DNA of 63,275 nt, the filler included, from Craspedostauros australis (Eukaryota): the NCBI GenBank assembly GCA_030167865.1. It is 14 parts of 14 records of this genome, joined end to end, with 100 filler letters (N's around TTAATTAATTAA, not from the genome) between each part and the next. Parts side by side here need not be neighbours in the genome. Positions count along the whole stretch, not along the records: positions 19,064 to 30,791 come from JALAGF010004696.1; 13 more parts are not named here. One strand, written 5' to 3'. Under the pieces are notes generated by a model. It searched no databases and was not told the DNA's origin. It saw nothing but the letters and a program-made list of their open reading frames with translations. The position numbers and the translations under genes are program-made. Shown piece after piece: positions 19,751 to 58,319 of the stretch; the first letter of the stretch is position 1, and each line of letters begins with the position of its first letter.

Positions 19751-20077
19751 CAACCAGCAACCAGCANNNNNNNNNNNNNNNNNNNNNNNNNNNNNNNNNN
19801 NNNNNNNNNNNNNNNNNNNNNNNNNNNNNNNNNNNNNNNNNNNNNNNNNNNNNNNNNNNNNNNNNNNNNNNNNNNNNNNNNNNNNNNNNNNNNNNNNNNN
19901 NNNNNNNNNNNNNNNNNNNNNNNNNNNNNNNNNNNNNNNNNNNNNNNNNNNNNNNNNNNNNNNNNNTGGATGATCATCCAACTCACATCTCCGTTTGCAC
20001 CGACATGCGTCTGCATCGTCCATTGTCCATCGCAACTCTCAATGTGTATCCTCCTCCCGCTTCCTCCATCACAATAG

Positions 20078-21204
20078 AATTGCAACTCATGCTCCAGAGA
20101 ACTCGCCGTCTCAAAGGTGCCGGCCGCAGCCTTCAGAAGAAGAAATCCAGGAAAGGAGGATTTCTGCCCAAGCAACCAGGGGTTGACACGGAGGCATGGA
20201 GGCGCAGCGACTCTGCTTGGTACTACGAGCAACTCGGTCAAATTCAAAGCATGGAACTCATCGAGCAACTGGCTAGAGTCACCGTCATTCCTGTCGGTGG
20301 TCCGGACACCACGCTTGNCNNCNCANTGGACNCGNNTGTTGGTGTCGATGCCTGCGTGGACGGCAATCCAGGGATCGGACGAANCGGGGAATTCACNGAG
20401 ACGNCTTGCGNTACTCTCAAGAAGCTCATCGAGTTTTGGTCGCTGGATCCTGCCATCGACAACACGCAAGTGGCAAGGATCCAAATGCAAGGTGTGAAGG
20501 GACAACTTCTGGCAAATACAGCCTTGCTGAAGGAAACCTTCGCCGGTTCTCCATTCATCAGTGACGAACTCATCCAACGGCTGCAGGCAGGGATCCAGAT
20601 GGGGCTGCCAGGTGGTTTCAACAACCCTCTGCTCACGTCCAGCACGGCTGTTAATGGGCTACTGACCGACGCAGGAACGCTTATCGAGCCAATTATCGAT
20701 CCATCCGGCGCCAGGACCTTCCAGGAATTCTCCACCGCTTCCATCAGTCTTGGAGACGGTTTCATGGATAGGTTGGCAGAAATGGATCTCGCATCAACCT
20801 TCTTTCTGGAGAGGGTCATCGTCAATCTCTTCCCCTTATTCTTCATCTCCGTTGTTGAACCAATTTCCAGCACAAATCCTCCCGGGTTGGCTCCGGAAAC
20901 GCCAATCGACACCGATTTCCGTCTTACCGAACGTGATGTCATCCGCCATACGATGGAGGGATACTTTTTTGCTCATATGAAGGGTACCCTCTATTTTGAT
21001 ACCTTCTGTGACATGTTGGAGCAGCCGCGCGGATCCGGAGCGCGTGGCAACTGCGGTTTCATCGTCGGCGCAAAGCTTGCTGAGATGGACGGGGAGGTGG
21101 TGAATGCGAAGAGGGTCATCGAATATGCCAGAGCCAACAGGGATGGCATTTTGAGCGCCGACCCATCCATCTGCCCAACCCCACCCGGCTGCTTCGATGG
21201 TTGA
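20078..21204 (+). CDS. Secreted-type protein, probable neutral zinc metallopeptidase family homologue without HExxH (last exon)
   Basis: Long open frame. Pyrimidine tract and TAG acceptor at 20075-20077; first in-frame ATG after it at 20089. RRL/RSLQ propeptide-like motifs; motifs EFW, GGFNNPLLT, SLGDG, GYFFAH.KG, GNCGF. Confidence 0.6.
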
Positions 21205-21730
21205 GCTGTCAACCTTTGCGCACCTTGTCGATGCGAAAGCCATACTTGCGAATGCCCATGTCGGCATCAAACTTAAAAACCATAATATAATGTCATATGT
21301 TCGTTACTAATTCATGGAATTGAACGATCATCGATCTCCCCCAGAGATCTCATTCATACTTGCATTTGTACTTGTGAGAGTTGTTGATCGAGGTCTTGGT
21401 GCGAGCGGAGAGAGTCCGTGCCGCTTGGTGGAAGCACTCGTAGATCGTACCATATGCCACGTAGTACGAGCTACACACACAGAGCCGAGCACACACCAAC
21501 GGTGGGCGACTGCACACGGCCATACGAGCGAGCGCAACAATTGCGAGCGGAGTAGAGGACAGCGGAGTAGTTTGGTTTGATCGAAGCAACCTTGTTTTCG
21601 CCCATGGCGCAGCGACCTTCAAAGTTCCAACCAGATGTCGCATAGTTTCGGAACTCCGGCAACTCAAACCAATCAGAAATAAAACTATAACAGTACCAAA
21701 AAGACAGCAAACAACACGAAAAACATCACG

Positions 21731-24333
21731 ATGACAAGCAACGGATCGACCATGGCGAGCCGTGACAATGGGCCACTTTCAAACAACGACGACGGCAATA
21801 CAGAGCAACCCTTGCACAACATCTCCCAAGATAAGGAACCGCCTCATCGCAGCAGTGTTATGGCAAAAAGAGCGGAGTCCAACGGAGCAGAAACGGGGAT
21901 ACCCGACCCAGATGAGTTCTCCATTGGATACAAGCCACGAACAAGCACGTGGAAGACAACCGAGAAGAAGTATGGACACGACATCGAGCCATTCGAGTCG
22001 TCCACTGGCCAGCACTCCATCGACTACATGGCAGGTCAGATGTGGAGCGCGAGAGCCAAATGGTACGGTAAGGACGAGTCGGAGGCATCCGCAGCCAATC
22101 CATCTGTGAAAGACTGGGAGCTTTTCTTCCGGCGCGTACTCAACGGTCGTCACACCCAGTATGGCCCCATGAGCTTGCCTTCCGATGACCCGCGCCGCAA
22201 ACGTGTGAGCATGGCAATCATGAGAATGGCGTCCACTAACCCCAAGAAGGTGTTCTCTATCACCAAGGGTGGGGGCATCAGCTCCAGGTCTCGCCCAGCC
22301 CGAGCATGGGAAGCCGCCCGCCGTGTACTCGGCACCAACTACGACATAGGCACGGCCCCGGCTACCAGCGACACTGGAGAGATTGGCAACGAAGACGAGG
22401 AGGCACCACCCAAACACACAGAGACACCGCACTCCCCCGAGTCAGCAGCATCCAATCCATCCCCTGGAGGCTCCAAGCCGACAAAGCGGACCAGGATCTC
22501 AAGCTCGCCCAGGCGTCAGGCGTCGGTGCTGGGCACAAGCACGAACAGATTCGCGGCGCTGAACGCAGAAGAACCAGACACCCAATCCGACAGCCCAGTG
22601 GAAACGCAGCCAGGCCCCGGCCAAGATGAATCACGTCCAAACCAAGGCGGGGCGCATCTTGGGGCCACGGCCAACGGCTCAACCAACGGCAAAGCCCGTC
22701 GGGTGCGGCCAGGAGTGACATTCAGCCAGGTTGCCTCAGAGATCGATGTTGAAGACATCTCAGTCAAGTCAAACTCAAGTCAAACCCTCATTGGGCTGCC
22801 CAGTCTTCAGCACACGACCAGGTTTATGTTCAAGATCAAGGCAGATCAAACAGAACCGGACACGACCAAAGCCCTTCGAGACAGGATTGTGGCCTGGTTC
22901 CGACAAGTGCGCATCACTGACCCATCAGCTGTCATCCTCCCATGGAAAGACACGCTCGAAGAACGCAGATACATTCAGCATGTGGGCCAAGTTCCCACCG
23001 AACTAAATGAGCTGCGTGTGTTCTTCAAGGGCATCCGAGCCTCCACCATGGACAGTGGCTTGACCTACACAAATGTCCGGATCACTACAGACATGCACCC
23101 AACAAACATCACGGCCGAGAGGGATGCAGAAATGAACCCGTACTACTACAAAACTCAAGAGGGTCTGTACATCAGCACACTCCAAGTCGAAAGCACGAAG
23201 GAGATCGGATTCCTGCTGTACTCGGGAGGCTTCAATGACGTGAAGGGCACAATGGAGCTCATTAACCGGGAGTTCCGCAGGCGCAACAAGAATACCAGAG
23301 TAGGAGGCAAGATGAAGAATCTGGTGGCAGTATGCGACGTGACAAAGGAGAAGTACAAAAACAGTGGCAAGCACTGGACCATGCAGCCGTGGCGCGCAAT
23401 CAAAGTCGAGACGGAGAGTTCGCAGGCGCCCATTGCGGTGGAGAGGCTGTGTGAGCTGCTCAACGAGGATGCAAATAGGCCTGCGGGCCTCCGACTACGC
23501 TTCCTCCCGGAGACTCGATATGAGCAGATGACAGCGAAGAAGAAGAGGCATCGGGACATGCTGATCCAAAAACATCAGGCCGTGTTATCGGGCCTCAAGT
23601 ACGTTGACACGGCAGGTGTTGCGAAGCTTGACGACCCAATACACGGTGACAATAGGGAGCATATCTCCCTCAGGGCACACATCATGGGGATGCGGAACGA
23701 CAAGGTCTTCCAATTTTTCAAAGCCTTGACATGGCACGAGCACACGACGACCAACTCATTGGTCACGTGTTCGAGGAGAACATGGCGCAGGCCATGGCAA
23801 TCATGAGTCTCCTTCCAGCGATAGCACGAATCCAGCTGGGCACCAAGACGGAGAAGTGGTTCAGCATTGACGCGTGGTATGCCAATCTCAACGTCACGTA
23901 CGACCCAGAGACCAAGGAATACAACGCACCTGACAACAGCAACCTGGAGCACCTGCTGGAGGAGGAGTTCCCAGCCAGTGTGGTCATCACAAACCTTCCA
24001 GCAGAACTGGATGGAGGGGTGAACCACCGGCCTGCAGCGTTGGACTATCGAAGTCTGTTCGGGACGGGCACCACAGTGGGGTCGCATATGACAATGAACT
24101 CTGCAATGACAGGAGCGCCTGGCGATGCTGACGCGGGGTCAATCGAGACCACGGCGTCGGAGAAACGCAGAGAAGCCACGAGGGCAGCCGCGTTGGAGCA
24201 AGAAAGACAGAGGAAGACCTCTCTGGATCAAGCACGGCTGGAGATACAGAGAGCCGAAATTGACAAACTGCGGCGCCTACTCGAAAAGCAACAAAGCCAC
24301 GCCAACCCCGGGGCCGGGGAACCGCCGCCATGA
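21731..24333 (+). CDS. LINE ORF1 protein, split by one -1 frame change near 23700
   Basis: ORFs 21731-23806 and 23731-24333 overlap; the second frame is open from 23656. It has a coiled-coil-like C-terminus, and its TGA overlaps the ORF2 ATG. Confidence 0.8.
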
Positions 24334-27300
24334 TAGTTGGCACGGCAAGCCGGTCGAAGATCAGCCGGCAGAGCGAAAGGCAAACGCACCCAGGTCGACC
24401 AGGCACGGAAGAGGTGGTCGACCAGTTCACCCCAGTCGGCAGCGACGCACAGCATGTTGTACCAGATCATATCCGGGTAGCAGCCCTCAATCTTGGAGGT
24501 CTCCCCACGGACAACACAGACCCAAAGTACCTTGACCTTTGGGAAACCATCAGCAGGTACAGCGTTGATGTCATGCTTCTGACGGAGGTGGGCATAAACT
24601 GGAGTAGGGTTCCCAGGCATAAACAACTTCACGAATTGGTCCAAGCCAATGTGCCCCAGTCGCGCACAGTCACTTCTCACAACCAAGTCAACCCGATGCG
24701 GGTACGTCAGTGGGGAGGCACAGCAATCATCATCAAGGGAGATACCAGAGGGCGAGTCCTGGGCTGCGACAAGGACACTCACCGGTGGGGCAGATGGGTC
24801 AGTGTGCTCCTCCAAGGTAAGGGGCCTATCAAAATCAGACTGGTGGCAACGTATGTGGCCAGCAAGTCCACCAAAACCCCCGGGACCGTGTACAACCAGC
24901 AGGCGGCCAATGCTGCTGCAGCAGGCCTGGAGGGCGAGCCCATTGATCTCCACATCAGGGAGCTGCAACAACAGTTGCACCAGTGGCGGCAGGCTGGCGA
25001 GACGGTCATACTGGGCGGAGACGTGAACATGGACGTTCGGAAGTCCCGCATGAGCTCCATGATGGCAGAGGAAGGCCTGGAGGAAGTACTCTCTGCTCGG
25101 CACACCCAACCGGTGGCAACCCACATCCGAAATCGGAGCTCCACGCAGATCGATGGCATCTGGTCCAACCGGGAGGCGGTGGCCACTCAGGTGGGAGCTA
25201 CCCCATTTGGCCGCTGGGATCACCGCATGATCTGGGTCGACTATTCCTTTCAACAGCTGATGGGTCGAGGCCGCACGCCGACACAGCCGTTCAAAGGCCG
25301 GCGGCTCCAGCTCCAAAGCCCGGCCACTGTCAGCAGGTACCTGGAGTCCTACGCGAAAGCGGCCAGCCAAAGCAATCTGCTGGAGAGAGCCAATGCCCTG
25401 GAATCCGAAGTGACGGGAGCTCCACTGACAATCGCCCAGGTCCAAGTCATTGAAGCCATCGACCGCGATCGCACACGAGCGATGCTTACAGCTGAAAGGT
25501 CGTGCAGGAGAGTCCGGATGGGGAACGTGCCCTACTCTCCCCATGTGAGTCGCATACAGAAAGCTCACCAATTCTGGACTGAATCCATCCGACGCCGATC
25601 CGGACACAAGGTCAAAGGGTCTACGATTGACAGGATCAAAAAGAAAGCGGAATTGGGGCATGTGCGGACTCGAGGCATGAGCATAGCCGACATGACGGCG
25701 GAACGCAACAAAGTGTGGAAGCAGCTCCAAAAGGAAAAGAAAGCGGCGGCACAACACAGGTCGGACTTTCTTCGATCCAACCAGGACTTTGTCCAACGCG
25801 GCGGACAAGATCCAGAGAAGTACAGGAGACAGATGGCAGAGCGCGAAGAGACCCGTGCGACGTACAGGCGTATCAAGCACGCCCTGTCAGGCACGGCTCT
25901 CGACTCCCAAGTCAGCATGGTCGTTCACGACGGTCCTGGTGGTCGAGGCCAAATCCTCATGGAGGCTGAAGAAGTGGCAGGTGCGTGCTGCGCAACAAAC
26001 ATCGCGAAATACCAGCAGGCATGGTCATCGGAGCTGTGCCAGCCGCAGATGAGCCGGCAGGTGGGCAAGTACGGCACCTCCGCCGCCGCCGACGCGATTG
26101 TCCAAGGGCTGGTACCCACACAGATACAGCCGGGCACGGCCGAGTTGCTCCAGGCCCTCCGGCAACCGGTACATGCGACGCCGTGGGACACAGCCGAAAC
26201 CGTCATCTCTACAGAAGGTCATGTGGAGGGATGGCGGAAGGTCAAGGAACGCACCTCGTCGGGCCCGTCAGGTCTCCACTTTGGGTGCTGGAAGGCCAAC
26301 ACCAGGCTACCTCAGCTGGCGGCAATTGATTCAATCATGCGTTCAGTTCCCTACCGCACCGGGTACAGTCTGAGCCGGTGGCAGCAATGCACGGATGTCC
26401 AGCTGCGCAAGCAACCAGGCAACCTGTCGGTGACCAGGACGCGCACCATTGGCCTCATGGAAGGAGACTTCAACATGAACACGAAACAGCTTGGTCGTTC
26501 CGCGCGCAAGCATGCGGAGGCCAACGGGACCATCGCTGCGGATCAGTACGGCAGTTGGCAAAGGCACACTGCGCAGGAGGTGCTAACCAATGTGTGCATG
26601 ACAGACGACATCATGCGCATATCCGGCAGGGCAGCGGCGGTGTGCTCAAATGATGCCAAAGGGTGTTATGACAGGATCTCGCATCCGGCATTCGGCATGG
26701 CGATGCGGCGGCAAGGGGTTCCCAAGCAGCCAATTGACAGTGTGCTGCGCACCATACAGCGTATGCGCCACCGCATTAGTATGGGATCGGGGATCTCTGC
26801 GACCAGCTATTCAGGAGCGGGACTCTCGCAGCCGATCCAAGGGCTGGTGCAAGGATTGGGGGCGGCTCCGACGGGCTGGTTGATGATAAGCTCGGCGCTG
26901 ATTGAGCGCATGAGCGTCAAAGGGTTTGGATTCCGTTTCGGCGAGGCACAACACGGACAACATCACGTGGTCTGCTTCGCATATGTGGACGACACCAATC
27001 TTGTCCACACGCTCCACAGCCAGGACGCGGCTTCGCAAGCACGCGAGTTTCAACGCGCGGTCACTGCCTGGGAAAGCATGCTGGCAGCCTCAGGAGGGTG
27101 CCTAGCGCCCGAGAAGAGCTTCTGGCAACTTATGAGATTCAAGTGGGGCAACAGTCGGTGGCAGTACGACAACAACTTCCAGCAGGGCGAAGTACTCATG
27201 AAGGGTCCCGAGGGGTCCAACCAGCGGCTCCAGCATAAGGCAGTGGGCGTGGCCAGCAAATACCTCGGGATGATGTCGCGTAGGGACGGCGGTCAGAGAG

Positions 27301-29960
27301 AACAGGTGGAGTACCTACGGCAGAAAGCGGTGGTGTGGGCCGATCACATCCAGTCATCGCGGATCTCAAAGCAAGACACGGAGATCGCCCTAAAATCAGT
27401 ACTGTGGCCTGCACTCGCGTATTCCCTGGCGGCTACTACGTTCACCCGCAGTCAGTGCGAGAGCATCATGAGGCCTGCGCTCATGACAGCTCTCCCACAC
27501 ATGGGCATTGCGCGCACCATTGCGAGGCAATACGTCCACGGACCCAAACAGCTGAACGGTCTGAGCATCCCCCACTTGTACACGATGCAGTGCAAGGCCC
27601 ACCTCGATATGGTGTGGAGGCACTTTGACGCCGGCACCACCACCGGCAAGCTGATGAGGTCGTCTCTCATGCAGCTTCATCTCTGGTCTGGCGTACTGAC
27701 TCATATGCAGCGACGCCAGCACCAATGGAAGGCATGGACACACAGCACATGGTGGTCACATACCTTCGATATGATGCACCAGACCGGCTTGAGCATGCGC
27801 CGCATTTCTCCCGATCTGCAGCCGCCACGAACGGGTGACTCCCCCATCATGGAGCTGTTCATTGACGGTGCGGGCGAGGTGGCAGACTTGCGCAAGGCCA
27901 ATGCGGTCCGGATTCACCTGCAAGCCATGTGGCTGTCCGACATCTGCAACGCCGCAGGCGACAGCATCCACCCGAACGTCCTCAACCGCCGCCAAGCCTC
28001 GCGGGAGACCTGCGAACTTCCATGGCCGCGGGCTGTGGCTCCTTCGCGGGCTTCGTGGGAAGCATGGGACAACCTTGTCCTCTCCTTACTGGCTAAGGAC
28101 CGGCCGGGAGCCATGCTGGCCAAGCCTCTAGGTCCATGGAGAGTTTCGGACAAGTTCCCTGCGCGACAGAATTCGGCTGGCAGTCTCCAGATCCATCGCA
28201 GAGGCCGGCAGCCACAACCGGTCCGGCGCTCGGAATACAGGTGCCGTAAAATCCGGGGAGAAGCTGTTGCAGACGTGGTTGAGCATAGAGGCACAATGGT
28301 GGTCCTCTCTCTGGGCCCGGTGGTATCGCCGAAGCCGGCAACCACGCTCCAGGATCACATCGGCAGGCTGGGAGGTCTCGCTGGGCCCATGCTCCGGCAC
28401 GTCCGCAACTTTGGGCCCCCTGCCTTCATCGCGTCTGCCATCTCTGAGCACAGGTGTGTGGCCTGCAGCGACGCGTCTGCTAAGGACTGCAAGGGCGCGG
28501 CGGCGATGGTGATCCAAGACCGTCTCGACAAGCCGACCTCGGGAATCATCATAAGGTCGGAGGTGCCAGAGGGTTCACAGGCCATGACTTCCAATCGAGC
28601 GGAGACGGCTGGTGTTCTCCTCTGCATTCAGTTCCTGCGGGCATTCGCTCAGTGGTCGAATGTGACGGGATCAGTGATCATTGCATGCGACAACATGCAA
28701 GCGATCCGGGCCGGCCAGCTCAGCAGCCATATCTCTGCTGACGATGCCGACTACGACCTACGGCAGGAGATTCAGCGCCAGCTGCGGTTCCCGGGGGTCC
28801 AATTTAAAGTCCAACACGTCAAGGGCCACGCGGATGCCATGTCCAACCACCGGATGTCGGACTGGGAGGTGCTCAATGTGATTGCCGACCATGAGGCTGG
28901 CGAGCACTGGCGGTCCCTCCAACAGGATGGCCGATGGGGTACGGTGGCGGGATCGCCGCAGTCTGCCGGCTGGGTAGTGTCCAGCGCTACAGGCCCCTTG
29001 TCGGAGGCCAGCTACAAAGCGGTGTCGCAGGAAGCGGCTACGGCCAGCCTACGGCTCAAGTGGCGACAGCGATGGGGCACTGGTGACCACTACTGCGTGG
29101 ATTGGAGGCCCATGTCCAAGGCATCCGGCCGATGGTCTGGGGGGCAGCACAGAGCCATCCTCAAGCTGGCATCGGGTAACGCGGCTTCAGGTCGCAACAT
29201 GTGCAGGCGGCAGCAGTCCGACTCAGGAGCGTGCCCGCGATGCGGAGCGGCTGAGGACAATCAGCATGTCGTCCAATGCCAGAGTGATGCCAGCAAGGTG
29301 ATCTGGGAGGAATGCATCCAGCGCGTTCGTAACGTCATTCAGCCGCCGAAGGTTCGAAGGGAAGCTGCCCAGCTGCTGGTGAAAGCCCTCCGAGTTCTGC
29401 AACGGGGAGGCAACCCCCCGCAAGGCATCAGGCGAACGGCCACGCATGGCATTGAGGTTGCCCAGAGCGGAGTGGGGTGGGATGGTCTCATCTGGGGCGG
29501 CTGGTCCGACGAGTGGGAGAAATTCAGCCCGAATCCTGCGCCTGCAGCCGGTCGAAGAAGACCGGTTCATTGGCAAGCCGAAGTGACCCATGAACTTTGG
29601 CTTATGGTGCTACAGCAGTGGGCGAGCCGAAACCAGCAGAAGCACGACGCAGTCACTCATGACACTATGGCCCAGCGCATGGGGTTCTACTGTCGCGCCA
29701 TTCAGGAGCTGCCCATACAGTCCCTGCCAGTGCATCTCCGCCAGCTCTCCCACCAAGTACCCGCAACGGCATCCCGGCAAGCAGAGTGGCTGCTGACCTT
29801 GCTCCACGCCATGCCTCACATTGCCGCCACCGTCCCCCCTCCCCAGCTTGCGTGGATGCGGCGCCAAGCCTCCGCAGCCCCCGGCCGCGGCAGCCCCACC
29901 AACGCGGAAGCCCCGCCAGCCTTACGCCGCGACGACCGAGTCGGCGAGGCCGGGCCCTAA
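24330..29960 (+). CDS. LINE ORF2: AP endonuclease, reverse transcriptase, RNase H, CCHC knuckle (1876 aa)
   Basis: APE: AALNLGG, LLTE, LGGDVN, IDGIW, DHRMIWVD. RT: NDAKGCYDRI, GLVQG, YVDD, KYLG. RNase H: SDAS, RAE, CDN, HVKGH, NVIADHEA. Knuckle: CPRC.....NQHVVQC. Confidence 0.96.
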   Translation: MIVGTASRSKISRQSERQTHPGRPGTEEVVDQFTPVGSDAQHVVPDHIRVAALNLGGLPTDNTDPKYLDLWETISRYSVDVMLLTEVGINWSRVPRHKQLHELVQANVPQSRTVTSHNQVNPMRVRQWGGTAIIIKGDTRGRVLGCDKDTHRWGRWVSVLLQGKGPIKIRLVATYVASKSTKTPGTVYNQQAANAAAAGLEGEPIDLHIRELQQQLHQWRQAGETVILGGDVNMDVRKSRMSSMMAEEGLEEVLSARHTQPVATHIRNRSSTQIDGIWSNREAVATQVGATPFGRWDHRMIWVDYSFQQLMGRGRTPTQPFKGRRLQLQSPATVSRYLESYAKAASQSNLLERANALESEVTGAPLTIAQVQVIEAIDRDRTRAMLTAERSCRRVRMGNVPYSPHVSRIQKAHQFWTESIRRRSGHKVKGSTIDRIKKKAELGHVRTRGMSIADMTAERNKVWKQLQKEKKAAAQHRSDFLRSNQDFVQRGGQDPEKYRRQMAEREETRATYRRIKHALSGTALDSQVSMVVHDGPGGRGQILMEAEEVAGACCATNIAKYQQAWSSELCQPQMSRQVGKYGTSAAADAIVQGLVPTQIQPGTAELLQALRQPVHATPWDTAETVISTEGHVEGWRKVKERTSSGPSGLHFGCWKANTRLPQLAAIDSIMRSVPYRTGYSLSRWQQCTDVQLRKQPGNLSVTRTRTIGLMEGDFNMNTKQLGRSARKHAEANGTIAADQYGSWQRHTAQEVLTNVCMTDDIMRISGRAAAVCSNDAKGCYDRISHPAFGMAMRRQGVPKQPIDSVLRTIQRMRHRISMGSGISATSYSGAGLSQPIQGLVQGLGAAPTGWLMISSALIERMSVKGFGFRFGEAQHGQHHVVCFAYVDDTNLVHTLHSQDAASQAREFQRAVTAWESMLAASGGCLAPEKSFWQLMRFKWGNSRWQYDNNFQQGEVLMKGPEGSNQRLQHKAVGVASKYLGMMSRRDGGQREQVEYLRQKAVVWADHIQSSRISKQDTEIALKSVLWPALAYSLAATTFTRSQCESIMRPALMTALPHMGIARTIARQYVHGPKQLNGLSIPHLYTMQCKAHLDMVWRHFDAGTTTGKLMRSSLMQLHLWSGVLTHMQRRQHQWKAWTHSTWWSHTFDMMHQTGLSMRRISPDLQPPRTGDSPIMELFIDGAGEVADLRKANAVRIHLQAMWLSDICNAAGDSIHPNVLNRRQASRETCELPWPRAVAPSRASWEAWDNLVLSLLAKDRPGAMLAKPLGPWRVSDKFPARQNSAGSLQIHRRGRQPQPVRRSEYRCRKIRGEAVADVVEHRGTMVVLSLGPVVSPKPATTLQDHIGRLGGLAGPMLRHVRNFGPPAFIASAISEHRCVACSDASAKDCKGAAAMVIQDRLDKPTSGIIIRSEVPEGSQAMTSNRAETAGVLLCIQFLRAFAQWSNVTGSVIIACDNMQAIRAGQLSSHISADDADYDLRQEIQRQLRFPGVQFKVQHVKGHADAMSNHRMSDWEVLNVIADHEAGEHWRSLQQDGRWGTVAGSPQSAGWVVSSATGPLSEASYKAVSQEAATASLRLKWRQRWGTGDHYCVDWRPMSKASGRWSGGQHRAILKLASGNAASGRNMCRRQQSDSGACPRCGAAEDNQHVVQCQSDASKVIWEECIQRVRNVIQPPKVRREAAQLLVKALRVLQRGGNPPQGIRRTATHGIEVAQSGVGWDGLIWGGWSDEWEKFSPNPAPAAGRRRPVHWQAEVTHELWLMVLQQWASRNQQKHDAVTHDTMAQRMGFYCRAIQELPIQSLPVHLRQLSHQVPATASRQAEWLLTLLHAMPHIAATVPPPQLAWMRRQASAAPGRGSPTNAEAPPALRRDDRVGEAGP

Positions 29961-30149
29961 TGCACGCGCCGCCATCGCGTCCTGGTCATCCTTCGCCCTC
30001 CTACACAGACAGCCTCTGATACTACAAGACAATTCCGTTCCCGCTGCATGACTCATGCAGAATAAACGAGGCGGCACAAAAGCGCCCTCGGCGCATAGGT
30101 AAAACTATAATCATTGTGGTACAACAACATCCAACCAGATGTCGCCTTC

Positions 30150-30184
30150 AGTAGGTAGGTAGGTAGGCAGGCAGGCAGGCAGGC
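30150..30184 (+). repeat. Compound microsatellite (GTAG)n(GCAG)n
   Basis: Seen directly, just 3' of the right TSD. Confidence 0.9.
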
Positions 30185-30200
30185 TGGAGTGGAATGGAGT

Positions 30201-30424
30201 GCTCTCTAGACCATGTACCTTGTACTAGAGGGTATGTTCCGATATTCTCTAGCTTGCTTCTGTTGGTTGCGGCATCAGTCACGCCCGGGACTCGATGCTC
30301 TTTCAGCTCGAACGGATGTGTGTCAGGTCGGCTCTGATTTGTCCGTTCGAGTTCGAAACAATGGCGTTCACAGATGATCGCTTTTCACCGTGATGGTTAA
30401 TTGACGTTATGGTTTGTATTAACA
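30201..30424 (+). ncRNA. Candidate structured RNA (four consecutive hairpins), family not recognised
   Basis: Stems 30225-35/30242-52, 30272-80/30289-98, 30307-16/30342-51 (perfect 10 bp) and 30361-68/30403-10. G-U pairs favour the plus strand. Confidence 0.35.
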
Positions 30425-30710
30425 TATACTACCACATGAATGTTACATACAAATATGACCGACGCGACGCTGACGCCAGCCGTCACCGATTCCATTTTGC
30501 GGACTACGAGCTTGCTTCACTCATCTTTTCGAAAATCAAACAACAAACACAAACGAAAGCAAAGGAATGGCAAGTCAAGCAGACGCAGAAGCGACCAGGA
30601 AAATGTGAGAACAACCAGCATCACGTACTATTACAGAGATGTTGTTTCCCAGCAGTGGACTCGCCTGGTTTGGACGAGGACGCTGCTTGGCTCTGGTGAC
30701 AACTAGTAAC

Positions 30711-37490: not shown

Positions 37491-39095
37491 TTATGATTCG
37501 ACGGCATCGCCGCCACCACCGCCACAACAAGCCCGCCAATTGTTCAGTTCGATTTGTACCGCTTCAATGATTGGCGCAATGCCGGCACACAAGTTGTCCG
37601 CGCGCCCCTGTTTGCGGTCGCGCAAGGACTGCATACTTGCATACGCTTCACTGGTGTTCCTACCCAAGAAGATGTGCGCATGATGCAAGCCGCAGACTGT
37701 GGCCAACGAACCAAAGAAGTCGGGCAAGTAGTACTTGGACGGGAAGATTTCGATCACCGATCCGCATCGCGGCATGAAGAAGATACCGGTGAGCTGCGCA
37801 CCGTGTGGTGCGATGAGAATGTCGACGTTGGTGAATGCCCGCGCTTGGTCCTGATAGGACATGTCCTCAAAGTAGAATACGGGTGGTTTGTAGGGGAGGT
37901 GGAAATGCTCCTGCAGGCGCAGCGATATCGTCGTAGATTGCAGAAGGCGGCGAGTCACACGTCGATTCAGAATGGCGATGCGCGGAAATGTGCTGTTGGT
38001 CAAGTGATGTTGGATGGAAGCCCCACCGCCGTCGCTGGTTTGAACTTCTGAACCACTGGCACCTCCGCAATACGTCGTTTCGCTTGGAAGGATTGGAATC
38101 AGTTCCATGGCTTTGCTTCGGAAGTGTGGCACATCCGTGATGTTTCCCACGCGAAAAATGTTGCTGTTTCTGGACCATGCAACCAACATGCCGCGTTTCT
38201 TGCCCTTCGCGTTTTTGACGTATTCAGGTGGATTCGAGATTGTGGTATCCAGAATGATGTTGTTGCGATCCAACAATTCCACCAAGGCGGAGCTGAAGCT
38301 CGTTCGAGTCGTCATCGTGCGCTTCTGCTCCGGGCTCAGCATCATGATATACTTGGCGCGGGGGAAACGCCGCCACATGGACCAGCACTGGAGGATGTGC
38401 TGCAGGGCGTGGGGGAAGTGATGCATGTCGCTGCGTTGAGAAATTGCGCAGACCGCCGTGTGCAATGGTTTGTTTCCCGCGGCCAGCCTCTTCTGATCCG
38501 TATCCATGCAATTACCATGCACACATTTGATGATCTTGATGATCGGGAACGTTCGTTCATATTTCAAGCTTGCGTACATCACTGGAAGTGAAGCATCGGT
38601 GACGTTGCAAGCTGAATCTGAGGGTTCCGCGAACATCGGATCAGCCTCTTGCACGGTCATGAAGCGTGGGAATTGCACGATTCGTGACATCAAACCCGAT
38701 GGTACGACTTGTATCGGTTGTTTTGTGGACCCTTGTTGTGTCGGCTGCTGAGTTGGCTGCTTCGTCGGTGGTTGTGTGGATGCTTGTTGTGTCGACTGCT
38801 CCGTAGATTGCACCGTTTCATGTTCTGCCTGTGAATGCTCTTGAATCTGCATCGGCGGCTCTGTGGAGAATCGCTCAGTATTCGTAGGCACTGACGTATT
38901 TGTCTCCAACCCGATTTGCGGCAGCGTCAATCGCTGTTCCGCAACCGGCAACCCTTGAGATGGGATTGACATTGCGGCCTCATACTCATCGAGATTGGTG
39001 GGGATTGCCGTCATGGACGTCAACAACGAGGCCACAAACATGATCATGGTCACCACGGCTACGACGGCCTTTCCGATCGTCCGTGCGCGCATCAT
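37491..39095 (-). CDS. Glycosyltransferase family 61 (DUF563) protein, type II membrane
   Basis: N-terminal TM helix (AVVAVVTMIMFVASLL) and Thr/Gln-rich stem. RIAILNR, YFEDMSYQDQ, DILIAPHGAQLTGIFFM, SVIEIFP. First ATG at 39095. Confidence 0.88.
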   Translation of the reverse strand: MMRARTIGKAVVAVVTMIMFVASLLTSMTAIPTNLDEYEAAMSIPSQGLPVAEQRLTLPQIGLETNTSVPTNTERFSTEPPMQIQEHSQAEHETVQSTEQSTQQASTQPPTKQPTQQPTQQGSTKQPIQVVPSGLMSRIVQFPRFMTVQEADPMFAEPSDSACNVTDASLPVMYASLKYERTFPIIKIIKCVHGNCMDTDQKRLAAGNKPLHTAVCAISQRSDMHHFPHALQHILQCWSMWRRFPRAKYIMMLSPEQKRTMTTRTSFSSALVELLDRNNIILDTTISNPPEYVKNAKGKKRGMLVAWSRNSNIFRVGNITDVPHFRSKAMELIPILPSETTYCGGASGSEVQTSDGGGASIQHHLTNSTFPRIAILNRRVTRRLLQSTTISLRLQEHFHLPYKPPVFYFEDMSYQDQARAFTNVDILIAPHGAQLTGIFFMPRCGSVIEIFPSKYYLPDFFGSLATVCGLHHAHIFLGRNTSEAYASMQSLRDRKQGRADNLCAGIAPIIEAVQIELNNWRACCGGGGGDAVES

Positions 39096-39519
39096 GGTGC
39101 AAGCGCTTCTCCGATCACGGGGGAAATCAAGGTTGATGGCGGAGATGGAATGATTGTGATCATGTCCAAGCCCAAGTCGGAATGAGGCCAACAATGACAA
39201 CAATGACGTGATGCGTCGGAACGAGCCGTTGATTTTGTTCGCTCACATTGTAGTCGAACGAGTCGAATATCAATGGTGATTTTCGCGCCAAGTTCACTGC
39301 ATTCAATGGAAACAATGACAGGAGACGAATCTGCAGAATAGTACTATATGGTATTATACGAGTAGTCCTGATGAGAGTTCCTCGAAGAGAGGCAGTGTGG
39401 GTCGTACGAGTACTAGTCGCAAGCAGGAAAATCATGCTTCATTGAGTGCGTATCCCTTTCCGACTCAGCTCGTTCTTCAACTCTGCCCGCTGCTTCGTGC
39501 GTGCCTCCAGCCACACTCC

Positions 39520-40935
39520 TTATGACATCACCGCCGCCTCGTCCCCAAACCCACAACACCGTCGCCACTCATCAATCTGCGTGCGCACGGCTTCCAAAAT
39601 CCGCGGCGCCGGCAGGCACAATTGCTTATTGCGCGCTGCGCTGCGCGATGTCAATGTCTTCATGACCTCGACCGCCTCTGCTTGCATGTTGGTGCCCAAG
39701 TAGATGTAGGAATGATTCAGCAGGGAGATGCGCGCCAGGCGTCCGTAGAAGACGGGATAATCCAATCCCAACGGAAACGATTCGATCAGCGATCCGCACT
39801 GCGGCATGAAGAAAGCGCCGGTGCATTGCGCGCCGTGCGGTGTTACGACGATATCGGCCTGCAGGAAGGTTTCCGCCTGGTGATCGAACGAGAAGTCTTC
39901 GAAGTAAACGACGGGCGGCCGGTAGGATAATCCCAATTCGTCTTGCAACAGCCGCGCGATGGAATCGGGAGCGAGCAAACGACGTGCGCCCTTTCGATTG
40001 ATGATAACGATGCGCGGCATGGGCAGCGCGTGCTGCTGTGGTTTCGTGACATTGCTGGGGAAGAGCGGATTGTCAATGTGCAAGTTTTTGGAGCAATATT
40101 CGATGGAATCGCGATGCGACGAAATCGATTCCAACATTTTCTGCCTGAAATCCTTGAGATCCTCCGTATCGGCGATTTTGTATCCTTTGAATTTGCTGGT
40201 CACGCCCACGAAGAGCTTGTTGGCATCGCCATTGTAGGTTTGTGAGTAGTTCTTGGGTGTTGTGAAGTTGGAGTCCACGATGACGCCCTGCGCCGTGATC
40301 ATGCTCGTGAGGCCGAGGTTGAAGGTGCTTCCCGTCGTCATGGAACGGTTCTGGATGTCATCCAGCAGCATGACGTGCTTGGAGTTGGGGTACCGACGCC
40401 ACAACGACCAGCACTGCAGAAGATGCTGCAGCTTGTGGGGAAAAGGGCCAAACACTGAGCCTCCAGCGATGGCACAGGCCACGGTTTCAGGCTGATTGGC
40501 GGAGTCGCCCGGTGGGAACTTGCTGAAGTTGCCGTCGAGGCACCCAATGAATTCATGGAGCGGATAACTGGTCGGGAAGTTGCCGGTAAGGTACCGGCCG
40601 GGAAGATCGGGATCCGTGATGGTGCAGTTGGCGTCGGTCGCCTCCGCGAAGGCGGCATTGTGCTGTTGTTGCATGATGAAGTCTGGGAAGTACGTAGCGT
40701 CTGACGTTGATGGTGTCGACTGTGTCGATATTGTCGTTGTGGATTGTGATTGCGTCGTTGCTTCTGTCGTTGTTACTTGCGTAGTCGTCGGTTGCGTAGT
40801 CGTTGCAGATTGCGGCTCCGCACTTCGTTCCATCTTCATCTGCTCTTCTGCTTGCTGCTCTTCCATACCTGCAATACCGCCATTGTCATTGTCATTGTCA
40901 TTGCCATTGTGGGATACCGAGTTGCTGGCAAATAC
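39520..40935 (-). CDS. Glycosyltransferase family 61 protein, 5'-truncated paralogue
   Basis: RIVIINRK, YFEDFSFDHQ, DIVVTPHGAQCTGAFFM, SLIESFP. Frame open to the contig edge. Confidence 0.88.
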   Translation of the reverse strand, partial: VFASNSVSHNGNDNDNDNGGIAGMEEQQAEEQMKMERSAEPQSATTTQPTTTQVTTTEATTQSQSTTTISTQSTPSTSDATYFPDFIMQQQHNAAFAEATDANCTITDPDLPGRYLTGNFPTSYPLHEFIGCLDGNFSKFPPGDSANQPETVACAIAGGSVFGPFPHKLQHLLQCWSLWRRYPNSKHVMLLDDIQNRSMTTGSTFNLGLTSMITAQGVIVDSNFTTPKNYSQTYNGDANKLFVGVTSKFKGYKIADTEDLKDFRQKMLESISSHRDSIEYCSKNLHIDNPLFPSNVTKPQQHALPMPRIVIINRKGARRLLAPDSIARLLQDELGLSYRPPVVYFEDFSFDHQAETFLQADIVVTPHGAQCTGAFFMPQCGSLIESFPLGLDYPVFYGRLARISLLNHSYIYLGTNMQAEAVEVMKTLTSRSAARNKQLCLPAPRILEAVRTQIDEWRRCCGFGDEAAVMS

Positions 40936-42867
40936 TNNNNNNNNNNNNNNNNNNNNNNNNNNNNNNNNNNNNNNNNNNNNTTAATTAATTAANNNNNNNN
41001 NNNNNNNNNNNNNNNNNNNNNNNNNNNNNNNNNNNNAAAAACTGCTAGCATACTTGAGCCGGATAGTGGGATGGTCAGGATTGATGATTCCCTTGCCCTG
41101 GAGCTTGTCTAACAGCTTGCCGCTCGTGGAGAAGACACAAGAGCCATGGACCTTCCTGGGAATCACTGCTGTGCTGGGGTACAACAAATCCAATGAGCAA
41201 AAGTGGACATCCACCAATACCACAGCAGCATGGAGCTGCGCGTACCACAAGAAGACTTGATCGAGTGTATCATCCGAGTTAGGATTCGGACGTAGGCGTC
41301 GCGAATCGGTGGAGAATGCCTCATGAATCTGCCGGCTTCGGGATAGCCGTGTGATGCAGTTCAAGAGAGGTGTACTGGTTGAAGAGTTATAACTTGTAAC
41401 AATGAGTAGTAGAGTGCTTTGTGGCTAATCCTTGTCTGTTTTTATGAGTTAGCTTATTGGTGTTAGTAGGGTGAAGAAACGATGCCACACAACTTGGCGA
41501 GACCCCGCACTGATGCACTTGATTCAGTGCAACAGAGTAGACAATCAATACAGTACNTTGCTCTCCGCACATGTAGTTACACTGCAGTGTAGGTCATGAC
41601 AATCAGTGATGACGGTCATGAAGCAGTGGCTGTGGCTGAAGCTGACCCTCGGATTCCATTGCTTGAGTTGAAGCAGGTTGGATATACATGTTGAGACCAC
41701 GGTGGTAGTGTGGTGGTCATCAGCATGAAGGAATCAAGGTATGTTGTAGTAAGGAGGATCTGAAGAGCATATAGTTCCCAGGTGGGGTGTGAGTCAGGTC
41801 GGTCAGGTTTGAGTCATGATGGATTCGTGAATGGAGGAGAGNNNNNNNNNNNNNNNNNNNNNNNNNNNNNNNNNNNGGAAGATTTCGCGCCAAAACAAGA
41901 ATTTCTCCCATCGGGTTGATACCGTGTTCGGTAATAGTCTGTCCCTCATTGAATCTCAACTATCCGCAAGCTTGATCTGCTGTCAATCCTGCACCTGCGA
42001 TGCACCAAAACAGAGCAAATCGAGGGCATCACCAATGGTGTAGCAATTGTGCCGACAGAGGGCAGGGGTGGAGTTTGTCACTGTGTAGGAAACACCAGAC
42101 CCAGCAATGTAGCTGAACTCAAATGGATCTTGGGAAGGAATGGTGTCCTCAACAGGGACAGAAAATACTGTCCTTGTGGAGAAAGCACAGGGGGCATGGC
42201 ATCGGTGTGGTTGGCACAGCCACTGTTGGCAGCCTCATCAACAGGGGTGTCATCATTGACAGGAGCCTTGGAAACCTGGCATCACTGTCAGCGGTGGTGT
42301 CAACGGCATCAAACATGGGAACTAATGGTGGTGCAGTGCACATTGATGGAGTGATGTTGTAGACATGCAGGACAGTGATGGAGTGGCGCAGAANATCGNG
42401 GAACTNGCAGGCCTGGAGGTTGGTGACCCAATCGTCATTGTCGATGTNGTCTCCACAAGTGCAAAACCACAATCAAACTTTCCACATGCCATGGATGTGG
42501 ACAAGACTGCCACCCCAATGCACCAATTGGGCATGGAAGAAGGCATCATCACCATTGAGNAAATTGTAGAATTCATGGTTGGTGGTGGTCTTGTTATCGT
42601 CCCACATGAGGGGAAACCATGTCCAACTGAGCTGCTCAGAGATGAGGCAGGCATCAACAAGAGCATGGCACTCCATGCTATCATTGTTGGCAGCCATGAT
42701 GAAAGGAAGAAGGAAGCAAGAACAGAGAGTATGGGGCAAAGAGGTTGAGGGAAGATACTGTGAATGTNNNNNNNNNNNNNNNNNNNNNNNNNNNNNNNNN
42801 NNNNNNNNNNNTTAATTAATTAANNNNNNNNNNNNNNNNNNNNNNNNNNNNNNNNNNNNNNNNNNNN

Positions 42868-54765: not shown

Positions 54766-54864
54766 NNNNNNNNNNNNNNNNNNNNNNNNNNNNNNNNNNN
54801 NNNNNNNNNTTAATTAATTAANNNNNNNNNNNNNNNNNNNNNNNNNNNNNNNNNNNNNNNNNNN

Positions 54865-57447
54865 NGCCTCAGCTGGGGCGGCGTCCTGGGGTCCGACGTC
54901 CTGGGGATCGGCGTTGTTCTCTACCGCAGGTACCACCACCTCGCCCTCAACGCCGACACCAGGAGGGGGGCCAGAGAAAGGAAGAGCGGGCGGGTCGGCG
55001 GGAAAGAAATGCGGGTCGGGCGGCGGAAGCGGGCCATCAATAGCAGCGTCATGGAACTCCAGCACGTGCTCGCGAGAGGTGCGGAAGAGATCGTGCCAGA
55101 GCGGGTCCAGGTCACCGGAGGAGGCATTGGAGACAGTGGAGAACGTCTCGTCGTACACCACATGATACTGCCGGGAGACCCATCCGGTCTGGATGCTGCG
55201 GATGAGGCCAACCGAGGACGAGTGCTCGGGATCGAAGCCAAGGTACTGGCCGAGCCGGGCCCGTGGCTCCCAGCGAGGGATGGACTTGTCGGCCTGCAGC
55301 CGAGGGTCGAGGACGTAGGCGGGGCACCCCCAGACGCGAGAGCGAGGGAGGTACTGGGACCCGACGGAGGAACCAGTGAAAGCGTCATGCGGAGTGGTGC
55401 GGGAGGTGCGGCGCGGCGTGTGATTGTACAACCACGCGGCATGCGACATGGCGGTCGGCCACAAGTCGGTGGCGAACTCCTTAGGCCAGTGAAGCTGGGC
55501 GTGAACCATCATGGCCCGGGCGCGAAGGGTACAGGTGAGGATGGCGCGCTCGGCCGCTCCATTCTGGTGATGGGCACCGACAGCACCGAAAGTGAGGCGT
55601 TGGTCGGCATCGAGGCTGTCACGCCAGGCAGCAGAGGTGAAGACCCCACGGTCGGTGTGGTAGTGCTGGACTTGAACCCCGTGGGCGCGGGCGGACTGCT
55701 CGAAGACACGCTTGGACGCAATGGTGTCGGAGGCACCGAAGGAGACCTGGTGGTGGATGGAGATGAAGCCAGTGTGCGAGTCAACGAAGATGGTCCCACC
55801 GACGTAGCGCTGGGTCTGGGGCTCCAGGCCGAAGGTGTTGAGACGCCGGCCACGAACACTGCTCTCGAACTGATCGACAGACACGTGCTCGCCCGGAAGC
55901 GCAGTTCCGGGAGCGATGGGACGGATATCGCCGGCGGGAGCGGAGCGACGGTTGGGGAGGCGTTGCTTGCGGGACTTCGCAAGGACGCAGGAGGCGCACT
56001 TCGGCAGGGGGCACCGCTTCATGCCGGAGACAGAGGGAATGAGATGGGACTGGGGCACCTCGTCCTCCGGGTCCAGGACCTCATGGGCGCGGAACAGCTG
56101 CTGCACATGAGCCATGCCGAGATGGCCAAGCTTGAGATGGGCATGCAGGAGAGCCTTCTGCGCGGTGGAAAGGTTGGCGTTGGCTGGCTCGAGGGCTTCG
56201 ACGCCGGCCAGAGCGGTGGACTCGGTGAGATGGGCGGCAGAGCGATGGGCGGAGCCGCGAGACGGCTTAGCAGATGGGCGGCCAAGCGCAGTCGGGATGT
56301 TGGAGTGCGGGTGGACCGGGACGGTGATGGTGCCCTTGTCGGCAGTCTTCATCCAGAACTGCCGGCTGTTCCCACCGAACGTTTCTGCATCGTAGAGACG
56401 CGCGGTCTTGGCGTAGTCCTGGGGGGAAACGAGGCGAACGTTGCTGCCGGGGATGAGATGGCCGGGCATGACCACTGTATCGAAGGTACCGTCGATCGAC
56501 ATGATGTCGTACGACACGGTGCCGATGGCGGTGATGTTCATTGACCCGCTGGCGGTGTGCACTTTGCCGTAGGATCCGAAGATGGGCTCGTCCAGGAAGT
56601 CGTCAACGTCATAGGTCATGGCGAAGGAACAGCCAGTGTCCATGATGATGGGAACGAGATTCTTGTGAGTGCCCTTCGGCGAGTGGTAGGCGTTGTGGAT
56701 GAGCTGCGACATGAACTGGTGGTCGACGTTGAAAGATGAAGCTTGGAAAGCAAGTGGGTGAATATCCAGCGGAGCAGAGATGGTGAGGGGGCCCTTGGAG
56801 ACAGGTCGAAAAGGGTCTGAGGCCCGACTGATGAGGCGGAAGAGATCCGGTGGGATGGCGTCGTCAGTGGCGGCAACGGACTCCGGAGCAGGCAGGCGGG
56901 ATGCCTGGACGGCGGCGGAGGCATGGCGATGGGCCATGAGATCGTCGAACTGGTGCCCGAAACCGGATAGGTGGAGAGTAGAGGACGGAGAGGGAGGAGC
57001 GGCACCAAGAGAGGAGGAGCCGGCCTCGACTTCCTGCAGGATGCGGCAGGGAGCGAGGACTGGGAGAGGGGAACCCCGAGCATGTACAAGGCGGCTGGAC
57101 CGGACTTGCGCGTACTCGAAGTATCGGAGAGTAGACGCCGGGATGGTCAGGTAGGATAGGACCATCAGGCGGGCGGGGAGGCCAAGGCCGAGGCGGCTGG
57201 AGTGCCGGACGACATGGCGAGGGACGGAGGGAAGGCTGGATCCGCCTGGACGACGGAGGAGGTGCCGGAGGGTGGTGACGACCCAAGCATCGGCGGGGAG
57301 CACCCACTGAAGGACCCAAGTAGTCGAGACTGCGAGTTGCTCAATGAAGAGCCCCAGGCACCCTACCACCCCCTCAATGAGGAAGAGCAGGATGACTGGC
57401 AGGCAGAGGAGAGGGCTTACGCGAAGAAGGGCCGCCTTTAAAAACCC
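54865..57447 (-). CDS. Copia (CoDi-like) Pol: protease, GAG-pre-integrase, integrase (3'-truncated)
   Basis: IIMDTGCS, HLKLGH...CASC, VSVDQ, YHTDRG, HHQNGAAER, WGCPAYVLDPRLQ...RWEPRARLGQYLG. The frame opens at the slippery site 57447-57441. Confidence 0.93.
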
Positions 57448-58319
57448 GATGCATCATCGGCCATGCGGACGCGAAGGGTGGTCGGGGGAGGCGCGGCCAC
57501 GGAAGCGGAGTCGTCGACGGCGGTGGCTTTGGCCTCAGCGGAGGCCTGGCGCTCGCCGCGCTTGCGCTTGAACTCCTGGAACCAGGCGTCGTGGCCGTCG
57601 GTCTCGTGGTTGCCCCAGCGCTGGCAGCGGGGGTTGCCGCACCAGTGCTCCGTACCGGAGCCATTTGCGCGGTCCCGGGTGTGGCTCTCGCCCTCCTGAG
57701 GAGGAGTGCGGTCGATGGGGTTGCCCCGACGGTCGACGGAGGGCTTGGTGCCCGACCCAGACCCGGTGGTGTTGTTGGCAGCAGCGGGGTGGCGACGGCG
57801 GATGTGCCAAGAGTCCGTGGCAACGAGCTTGCGGTACTTGCCGAGGGAGACGTCAAGGACGCCCTCCCAGGTGTCCAAGGTGGACGACGTTCCAATCTCC
57901 ATGGACATCTCCATGAAACCCAGGTGGGTTTTGAAGGCCTGGCAGGTGCANNNNNNNNNNNNNNNNNNNNNNNNNNNNNNNNNNNNNNNNNNNNNNNNNN
58001 NNNNNNNNGCCGCAATGCGGGAGATGGCCGAGCGGAGGTAGGCACACGCCACTTCGATGTTCTCGCCCTCAATCTGGCTGACCTTGAAATGCTGGATCCG
58101 GTTGAGGATCTCGCGGGCCGTATCGGAGTTGGTGCGGGCCACCAACTCGACGATGTAGAAGAGCGCGAGCGGTCCACCCTTTTCGTCATAGGGCACAAGG
58201 CGGAGGCGGTTGGCGACGATCGCGCGGAGCTCCTCAGTGCAGGAGTTCAGGATGAAACGCTGAGAGACCTCGAGGTCGGTCGCGATCTCATCGCTGCTTG
58301 CGAAGTTGTGGTACGTCCA
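57438..58319 (-). CDS. Copia (CoDi-like) Gag C-terminal half
   Basis: GGPLALFYI...IEGENIEVAC and zinc-knuckle-like WCGNPRCQRWGNHETDGH. Lies directly upstream of Pol. Confidence 0.85.
   Translation of the reverse strand, partial: WTYHNFASSDEIATDLEVSQRFILNSCTEELRAIVANRLRLVPYDEKGGPLALFYIVELVARTNSDTAREILNRIQHFKVSQIEGENIEVACAYLRSAISRIAXXXXXXXXXXXXXXXXXXXXCTCQAFKTHLGFMEMSMEIGTSSTLDTWEGVLDVSLGKYRKLVATDSWHIRRRHPAAANNTTGSGSGTKPSVDRRGNPIDRTPPQEGESHTRDRANGSGTEHWCGNPRCQRWGNHETDGHDAWFQEFKRKRGERQASAEAKATAVDDSASVAAPPPTTLRVRMADDASGF

Follow-up and report, generated by a model that had tools for sequence, protein, structure and literature searches.

A full-length LINE insertion in the diatom Craspedostauros australis, probably dead in cis, and conserved RNA structure at the ORF1/ORF2 junction of its clade

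A stretch of 63,275 nucleotides from Craspedostauros australis (the window), made of contigs joined by N spacers, carries on a single contig (G000:C4696, 11,728 bp) a long interspersed nuclear element (LINE) with two open reading frames (ORF1 and ORF2). We consider it likely that this is a full-length, two-ORF non-LTR (long terminal repeat) insertion of the diatom's dominant LINE clade, made by target-primed reverse transcription, recent but probably dead in cis. It has the properties of a non-LTR element of the apurinic/apyrimidinic endonuclease (APE) type: APE and reverse transcriptase (RT) in ORF2, target-site duplications (TSDs) of variable length, a simple-repeat tail, an empty site and no LTRs. 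Target-primed reverse transcription is established for APE-type LINEs, and we attribute the integration to it from this known biology together with the TSDs, tail and domains found here. An autonomous copy would have both ORFs intact; in the assembly, ORF1 of this copy is frameshifted. The insertion itself is ordinary, a probably dead copy; what makes it valuable is the access it gives to a large and poorly described clade, for which the ends, the range of TSD lengths, the tail, the domains and the fold of ORF1 are now defined. The added value of the analysis is the conserved RNA structure at the ORF1/ORF2 junction. Positions are those of the window, and the element lies on the + strand.

An earlier examination of the DNA without database searches (the sequence-only reading) had described an 8,488-bp element bracketed by an exact 16-bp TSD. 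Both features were recovered: identical 16-mers occur at 21626-21641 (5′ copy) and 30130-30145 (3′ copy) and nowhere else in the window, two matches were obtained in none of 100 shuffles (0/100), and the 8,488 bp between them are free of Ns. The empty site, for which a search had been proposed, was found at six homologous loci. It is exact on two contigs (C5935 and C1049), and the four other loci also carry one copy of the site: three with one substitution in the 16-mer, and the sixth with the 16-bp flank overlap again, seen by alignment. The flanks of the element are part of a duplicated unit, and these empty loci could be alleles or paralogues.

The same 5′ terminus was found on 12 contigs with unrelated flanks, counting only ends that carry the terminus motif. 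Ten of these 5′ ends could be paired with a 3′ end (five of the pairs across two contigs), with TSDs of 15-18 bp. The targets of the ten TSD-bounded insertions have nothing in common except that they overlap the tail by a short stretch (in 6/10 the TSD begins with A). This comparison of flanks, also proposed at the outset, thus gave ten unrelated targets without target preference, and target specificity as in site-specific LINEs such as R1 and the Tx1 type was rejected. The boundaries, previously said to be defined to the base, are real since both ends are common to other copies, but the 5′ end is uncertain by 1 nt: a C precedes the ATAG terminus in 8/12 family 5′ ends and is not in the target in 2/10 TSD pairs, so that the C closing the 16-bp TSD may belong to the element as its first base. 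In more distant subfamilies, TSDs of 15-18 bp were found in 7/16 regions, bounding elements of 8,357-8,838 bp with tails of the (TA)n, (TTAT)n or (TTA)n type. Two 12-bp TSD candidates from 16 metagenome loci were judged to be chance, and an apparent 21-bp TSD of another copy (C4842) is a piece of a longer duplicated flank.

The 5′ untranslated region (UTR; 21642-21730) is indeed short, with 89 nt. It starts with a 10-nt terminus that is conserved in the family, is invariant and stands at the 12 ends with unrelated flanks. It is presumed to hold an internal promoter; its fold is no better than that of shuffles (z -0.02), and an Rfam search of 21500-30300 gave 0 matches at E <= 1. At the other end, the (ACA)3 microsatellite tail described in place of poly(A) is present at 30121-30129. 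It is preceded by a structured 3′ UTR end (30032-30120). In 22 distinct 3′ ends, from 30 loci fetched, the last ~95 nt form four short helices with 96.7% of cells paired and 4 pairs changed on both sides, a level reached in 0/500 shuffles. This folded 3′ end is a probable RT-recognition element. The AATAAA noted earlier is present at 30061 but not conserved, AACAAA taking its place in 3/10 TSD-bounded insertions; being also partly paired in the 3′ fold and 63 nt from the end, it was rejected as a poly(A) signal. Among older 3′ ends (L035-L050), groups with a common downstream flank across several contigs were observed, which suggests that these copies were carried inside another repeat or a segmental duplication. 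Three other contigs (G000:C6081, C2790 and C5890) are probably pieces of one TSD-bounded copy split by two later insertions.

ORF2 (24330-29960) is uninterrupted over 1,876 aa and has the order APE-RT-RNase H-CCHC, both as described beforehand; APE and RT pass Pfam cut-offs, and the RNase H was recognized by its fold. The APE domain lies at 24486-25226 (PF03372, E 3.7e-6; family profile against PDB 2v0s_A (LR1), E 3.3e-6). The RT region lies at 26175-27614, with SNDAK at 26646 and YVDD at 26982, and PF00078 was found in 37/37 aligned members. For the RNase H1 domain (28434-28946), PF00075 was detected in 12/35 members and missed with the window copy alone. The structural model (predicted local distance difference test, pLDDT, 82.6) matched RNase H1 3aly with Z 16.7 and a root-mean-square deviation (rmsd) of 2.4 over 136 residues. 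The conserved columns D-E-D-H-D (D1381, E1425, D1454, H1500, D1520) include a His at 1500, which makes the domain His-type by criteria stated in PMC5348765. The CCHC (29232-29279, residues 1635-1650) follows the RNase H and is part, with a WxxRN motif, of a C-terminal domain at 29034-29660. The fold of this domain matches R2Tg (Z 9.9, rmsd 3.7, 168 residues), human L1 ORF2p (Z 8.2, rmsd 3.8, 144 residues) and R2 8ibw (Z 7.8, rmsd 4.0, 169 residues). Downstream of the CCHC, no PD-(D/E)xK motif was seen in the protein of the window, and 5/86 homologs had a match to a loose pattern; given the R2 match at Z 9.9, the modelled domain may hold a degenerate remnant of a restriction-like endonuclease. 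By analogy with other LINEs, APE would nick DNA with little sequence preference, RT would bind the element's RNA at its folded 3′ end and prime at the (CAA)n tail, and the RNase H of the element would remove the RNA.

How ORF2 of LINEs is initiated is an open question (PMC3894237). In SART1, ORF1 and ORF2 are coupled at UAAUG and the required structure is downstream (reviews PMC10275272, PMC5972666, PMC3894237), and viruses use upstream structures at AUGA or UAAUG overlaps (PMC10275272, PMC5972666, PMC3894237, PMC2881922). In the window element, the ORF2 start and the ORF1 stop overlap as AUGA (24330-24333). Of 40 junction copies with both ORF ends (15 from the same genome and 25 from metagenomes, not all independent), 26 have an in-frame AUG no more than 9 nt from the ORF1 stop, and the stop/start overlap recurs in several forms: AUGA, UAAUG, AUGnUAG and stop-nn-AUG.

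Ten junction copies fold into three hairpins, with 93% of 199 cells paired and 6 pairs changed on both sides; the covariation (0.258) was reached in 0/500 shuffles, and slid controls were at most 50% paired. Hairpin H1 (24306-24319, 5 bp) ends 10 nt before the ORF2 AUG, with 98% of cells paired and one compensatory pair. H2 (24349-24369) lies in the ORF2 leader (85% paired, 2 pairs changed on both sides), and H3 (24393-24423) has a 9-bp stem and a 13-nt loop (96% paired, 3 pairs changed on both sides). Across six lineages with only 35-45% identity at four-fold sites, no invariant stretch of the whole element exceeds the 17 nt within H3 (24400-24416); the next, invariant in five of the six, is 15 nt at 24305-24319. 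When a model built on these hairpins was run on 16 regions kept out of its construction, it matched 6 junctions of the sister subfamily (approximate E 3e-8 to 1e-3). An independent fold of these six placed hairpins at the same three positions, with 96.8% paired and the covariation reached in 2/500 shuffles.

Structure without sequence was examined in 24 representatives, chosen one per lineage, in a segment of 36 nt whose 3′ edge lies 7 nt short of the end of the ORF1 stop. This segment ranks among the locally most stable 10% in 19/24, with a mean z of -2.1 against dinucleotide shuffles, compared with -0.7 to +0.2 for segments upstream and far downstream. A second stability peak lies 40-50 nt downstream of the stop (z -1.2). 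From the observed conservation we infer a function, and favour with some reserve a translation of ORF2 by termination-reinitiation at the overlapping stop and start, helped by the hairpins on both sides. Only tentatively would we extend this to the very large diatom LINE clade as a whole, in the form of a virus-like reinitiation that would need a hairpin placed 5-10 nt before the ORF1 stop. Structure and not sequence would be kept across members 27-34% identical in ORF2, downstream hairpins would help, the AUG would be dispensable in about one third of copies, and the clade might differ from the Repbase clade Ambal discussed below.

Several observations weigh against coupling by reinitiation. 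The hairpin upstream of the stop is short and weak in the window copy itself (14th percentile, z +1.0), and the fold of its junction as a whole does not surpass that of shuffles (z -1.03). The sequences behind the covariation counts are related and stand for few independent events, and in one alignment (A2) 18/500 shuffles attained 6 covarying pairs. The junction model had no significant match in distant metagenome relatives, and the -7 offset was picked after seeing the data. Finally, 14/40 copies have no in-frame AUG near the ORF1 stop, a point that also favours another role for these hairpins. They could act in packaging or in ORF1p binding, could give rise to a separate ORF2 mRNA through an internal promoter or a splice signal, or could be an internal ribosome entry site independent of ORF1 termination. 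The H3 loop, invariant and situated 70-87 nt into ORF2, suggests sequence-specific binding and points the same way, as does the presence of a UGGGA motif within 90 nt upstream in only 1/40 copies. We hold such other roles to be rather doubtful: the stability peak keeps a fixed position relative to the ORF1 stop (17/24 at each of the offsets -10 and 0, 1/24 at each of -20 and -30), and the overlap recurs in several forms.

If reinitiation is the mechanism, it would resemble that of viral elements by its upstream hairpin and differ by the lack of UGGGA. This is the 18S-complementary motif of viral termination upstream ribosome-binding sites (TURBS), and on this count the junction is not of the TURBS type. 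The likeness to SART1 lies in the stop/start overlap and the RNA structure downstream of it; SART1 is telomere-specific with a downstream structure, whereas here a clade-wide hairpin lies just upstream of the stop and there is no target specificity. The LINEs named for ORF2 reinitiation in the relevant passages of the reviews are only SART1 and mammalian L1. Among the papers listed by the literature searches, we found none on such a junction signal in diatom LINEs, and Repbase Reports or supplements may describe these features.

Three copies (C4820, C6435 and C4754) have open ORF2 frames of 1,901-1,925 codons with an AAG 5 nt before the ORF1 stop, where their sister copies C671 and C4178 have AUG. 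Their first in-frame AUG is 121-292 nt downstream, and they are natural candidates for non-AUG initiation. Near-cognate start codons in general (11/40 copies) were rejected as evidence, one of six codons often being expected by chance. With overlapping stop and start, an upstream hairpin at a fixed position, natural variants lacking the AUG and young copies that are intact, the clade offers a compact system for ORF2 initiation.

The clade of the window element supplies 27 of the best 30 of 104 RT loci, and from these loci it is the dominant clade of the LINE content of C. australis. The host is taken to be a diatom from 92 silicon-transporter matches in the genome (a greatly expanded family, some members with internal stops) and from the nearest Atlas clusters to the RT, which are Bacillariophyta (0.95, few members with taxa). 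In public data, 524 clusters match at E <= 1e-30, and the 91 homologs retrieved that exceed 1,700 aa range from 1,722 to 2,191 aa; a search, itself weak, found none of 3,284-5,000 aa. A cluster look-up of ten homologs gave no informative names. One homolog (P0006, 41% identical) is labelled as a protein of a bacterial metagenome-assembled genome (Cetobacterium sp.), probably by eukaryotic contamination of the bin.

Ambal is a clade of diatoms with two ORFs and APE-RT-RNase H, and on this description we lean towards placing the window element in it, as the sequence-only reading did. The host, the two ORFs and the domains of ORF2 agree, the domain order being shared with other clades. Ambal elements may be larger, at over 10 kb with proteins over 3,000 aa, than the window element with its 8.5 kb and 1,876 aa and than the 8.4-8.8 kb of its clade. 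Ambal is listed among Repbase non-LTR clades (Table 2 of PMC4455052 and of PMC5753468; the name also in PMC4438587), and in diatoms LINE/Ambal is reported as abundant in Pleurosigma (PMC12803021) and RTE-like elements are described in two species (PMC2806351).

A less probable view separates the clade from Ambal, as a large group of diatom LINEs still without a name. In its favour, the RT profile had 0 PDB matches at E <= 10, in a search where a group II intron RT control did not show L1 or R2 RTs to be detectable. The RT motifs QGNG and CYDR have 0 occurrences in a reference RT alignment of the other main clades (supplement of PMC5348765), which is without Ambal entries. An RT tree made by a quick method with 54 rows and no labelled references bears on structure within the clade only. 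The abundance of LINE/Ambal in Pleurosigma counts against an unnamed clade, and one represented by 524 clusters would hardly have escaped Repbase.

As for the age of the insertion, the identical TSD pair was rejected as a date when taken alone, 16-bp identity bounding divergence only at <=17%. Under simulated substitutions (300 runs per level), the share of runs in which ORF2 stayed open was 14% at a divergence of 1%, fell to 3% at 2% and was nil at 3%. Purifying selection acts on both ORFs, with a ratio of non-synonymous to synonymous rates (dN/dS) of 0.07-0.14 (for ORF2, 0.09-0.13 when compared with three intact relatives). A single sister was found, C4842, which is 5′-truncated and 95% identical; it differs at 51 synonymous and 29 non-synonymous codons of 622, so that selection acted on the lineage during this span. 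The insertion is thus probably recent, with a divergence under about 1-2%. Of the earlier description as recent and possibly active, the open ORF2 in the simulations upholds a fairly recent insertion; in view of the frameshift in ORF1, possible activity is not supported, nor is the view of the copy as complete.

A single intact ORF1 was not borne out. In the window copy, ORF1 (21731-24333) is split into overlapping frames at 21731-23806 (691 aa) and 23731-24333 (200 aa). Among 10 full-length sequences, one base near 23702 is missing in the window only and present in 9/9 aligned relatives, 8/9 of which have a continuous ORF1 of 869-870 aa. In the intact copy C181, the modelled ORF1 core (pLDDT 85) comprises two ferredoxin/RRM-like domains and a third alpha/beta part; its best fold match (Z 6.5) is weak and within the range of common arrangements. 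No Pfam family was found in ORF1 at the cut-off, and Foldseek had no match at E <= 0.001; the best Atlas value was 0.77, and two unnamed homologs were found. By its position, the frameshift would fall inside the third part and remove the last ~210 residues of ORF1p. If the coupling is real, the premature ORF1 stop at 23806 would halt ribosomes ~525 nt before the ORF2 start and leave ORF2 uncoupled. As assembled, this frameshift makes the copy probably dead in cis.

It is unlikely, in our view, that the window copy is fully intact and potentially active, the frameshift being an assembly error. Only one sequence of the window subfamily spans the site, a weak point in the case for a dead copy; the assembly is fragmented (6,734 contigs) with many Ns elsewhere, and ORF2 is free of stop or frameshift over 5.6 kb. 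The subfamily being near single-copy, local read depth would have had no boost from repeats. The element itself, however, is N-free, and ordinary decay is seen in other family copies of the assembly (ORF2 broken in C3693 and C3848, both ORFs in C922). Moreover, the sole sister is truncated and 5% diverged, with no sign of a current burst. The better candidates for current activity are elsewhere. C181/C182 and C3286/C1261 are two insertions, placed at different sites and 0-1 base apart, with both ORFs intact, and form the youngest subfamily seen, although their identity may be inflated by assembly collapse. The 3′ flank of C182 resembles coding sequence of another repeat.

That the element is a divergent L1/Tx1 with a captured RNase H is very improbable. 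Common to both are two ORFs, an N-terminal APE, a CCHC in the C-terminal domain and, weakly, RRM-like folds in ORF1. The sole significant PDB match of the APE profile is 2v0s (LR1), which we take to be an L1-derived endonuclease, Pfam zf-RVT was found in 8/35 members, and the C-terminal fold scores Z 8.2 to L1 ORF2p. Scores against R2 are however equal or better, the RT motifs are unlike the L1 rows of the reference alignment, and the RT, judged by motif and by the profile search whose control did not show LINE RTs to be detectable, appears to stand apart from L1/Tx1. Plant (Ta11) and oomycete L1s with RNase H are described as having an Arg-type domain at the C-terminus with the CCHC upstream (PMC5348765), whereas here a His-type RNase H precedes the CCHC; this type of L1 was rejected. 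The window element differs further by its microsatellite tail and folded 3′ end in place of poly(A), and by the lack of an A/T-rich target consensus over 10 sites.

Dualen/RandI elements are likewise algal LINEs, and cryptophyte Dualen has the order APE, RT, RNase H, CCHC (PMC5029228). The same source defines Dualen by a restriction-like endonuclease beside APE and gives 5,287 aa for Dualen-1_GCr; the window protein lacks the PD-(D/E)xK motif after the CCHC, and the RT row of RandI-6 has canonical motifs, unlike ours.

Around the insertion, a (TAGG)n(CAGG)n microsatellite at 30151-30186 lies directly 3′ of the TSD and is of variable length at homologous loci. At two of the homologous loci without the insertion (G000:C4683 and C1904) the target site is ~660-680 bp upstream of a silicon-transporter start codon. 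Homology stops near 30640 in the window, where a different multi-copy repeat starts, so that this upstream region appears to have been hit twice. A 399-aa ORF at 20005-21204 (+), without Pfam family, belongs to a multi-copy unit that precedes the silicon-transporter gene at other loci. Elsewhere in the window, two adjoining frames of glycosyltransferase family 61 lie at 37494-39242 and 39523-40980 (-), and a long frame at 54817-57453 (-), with GAG-pre-integrase and retroviral SH3 matches below cut-off, is probably a Copia-type LTR element. Another contig of the genome (G000:C1217) has a group II intron-type RT/maturase frame of 719 aa, probably organellar.

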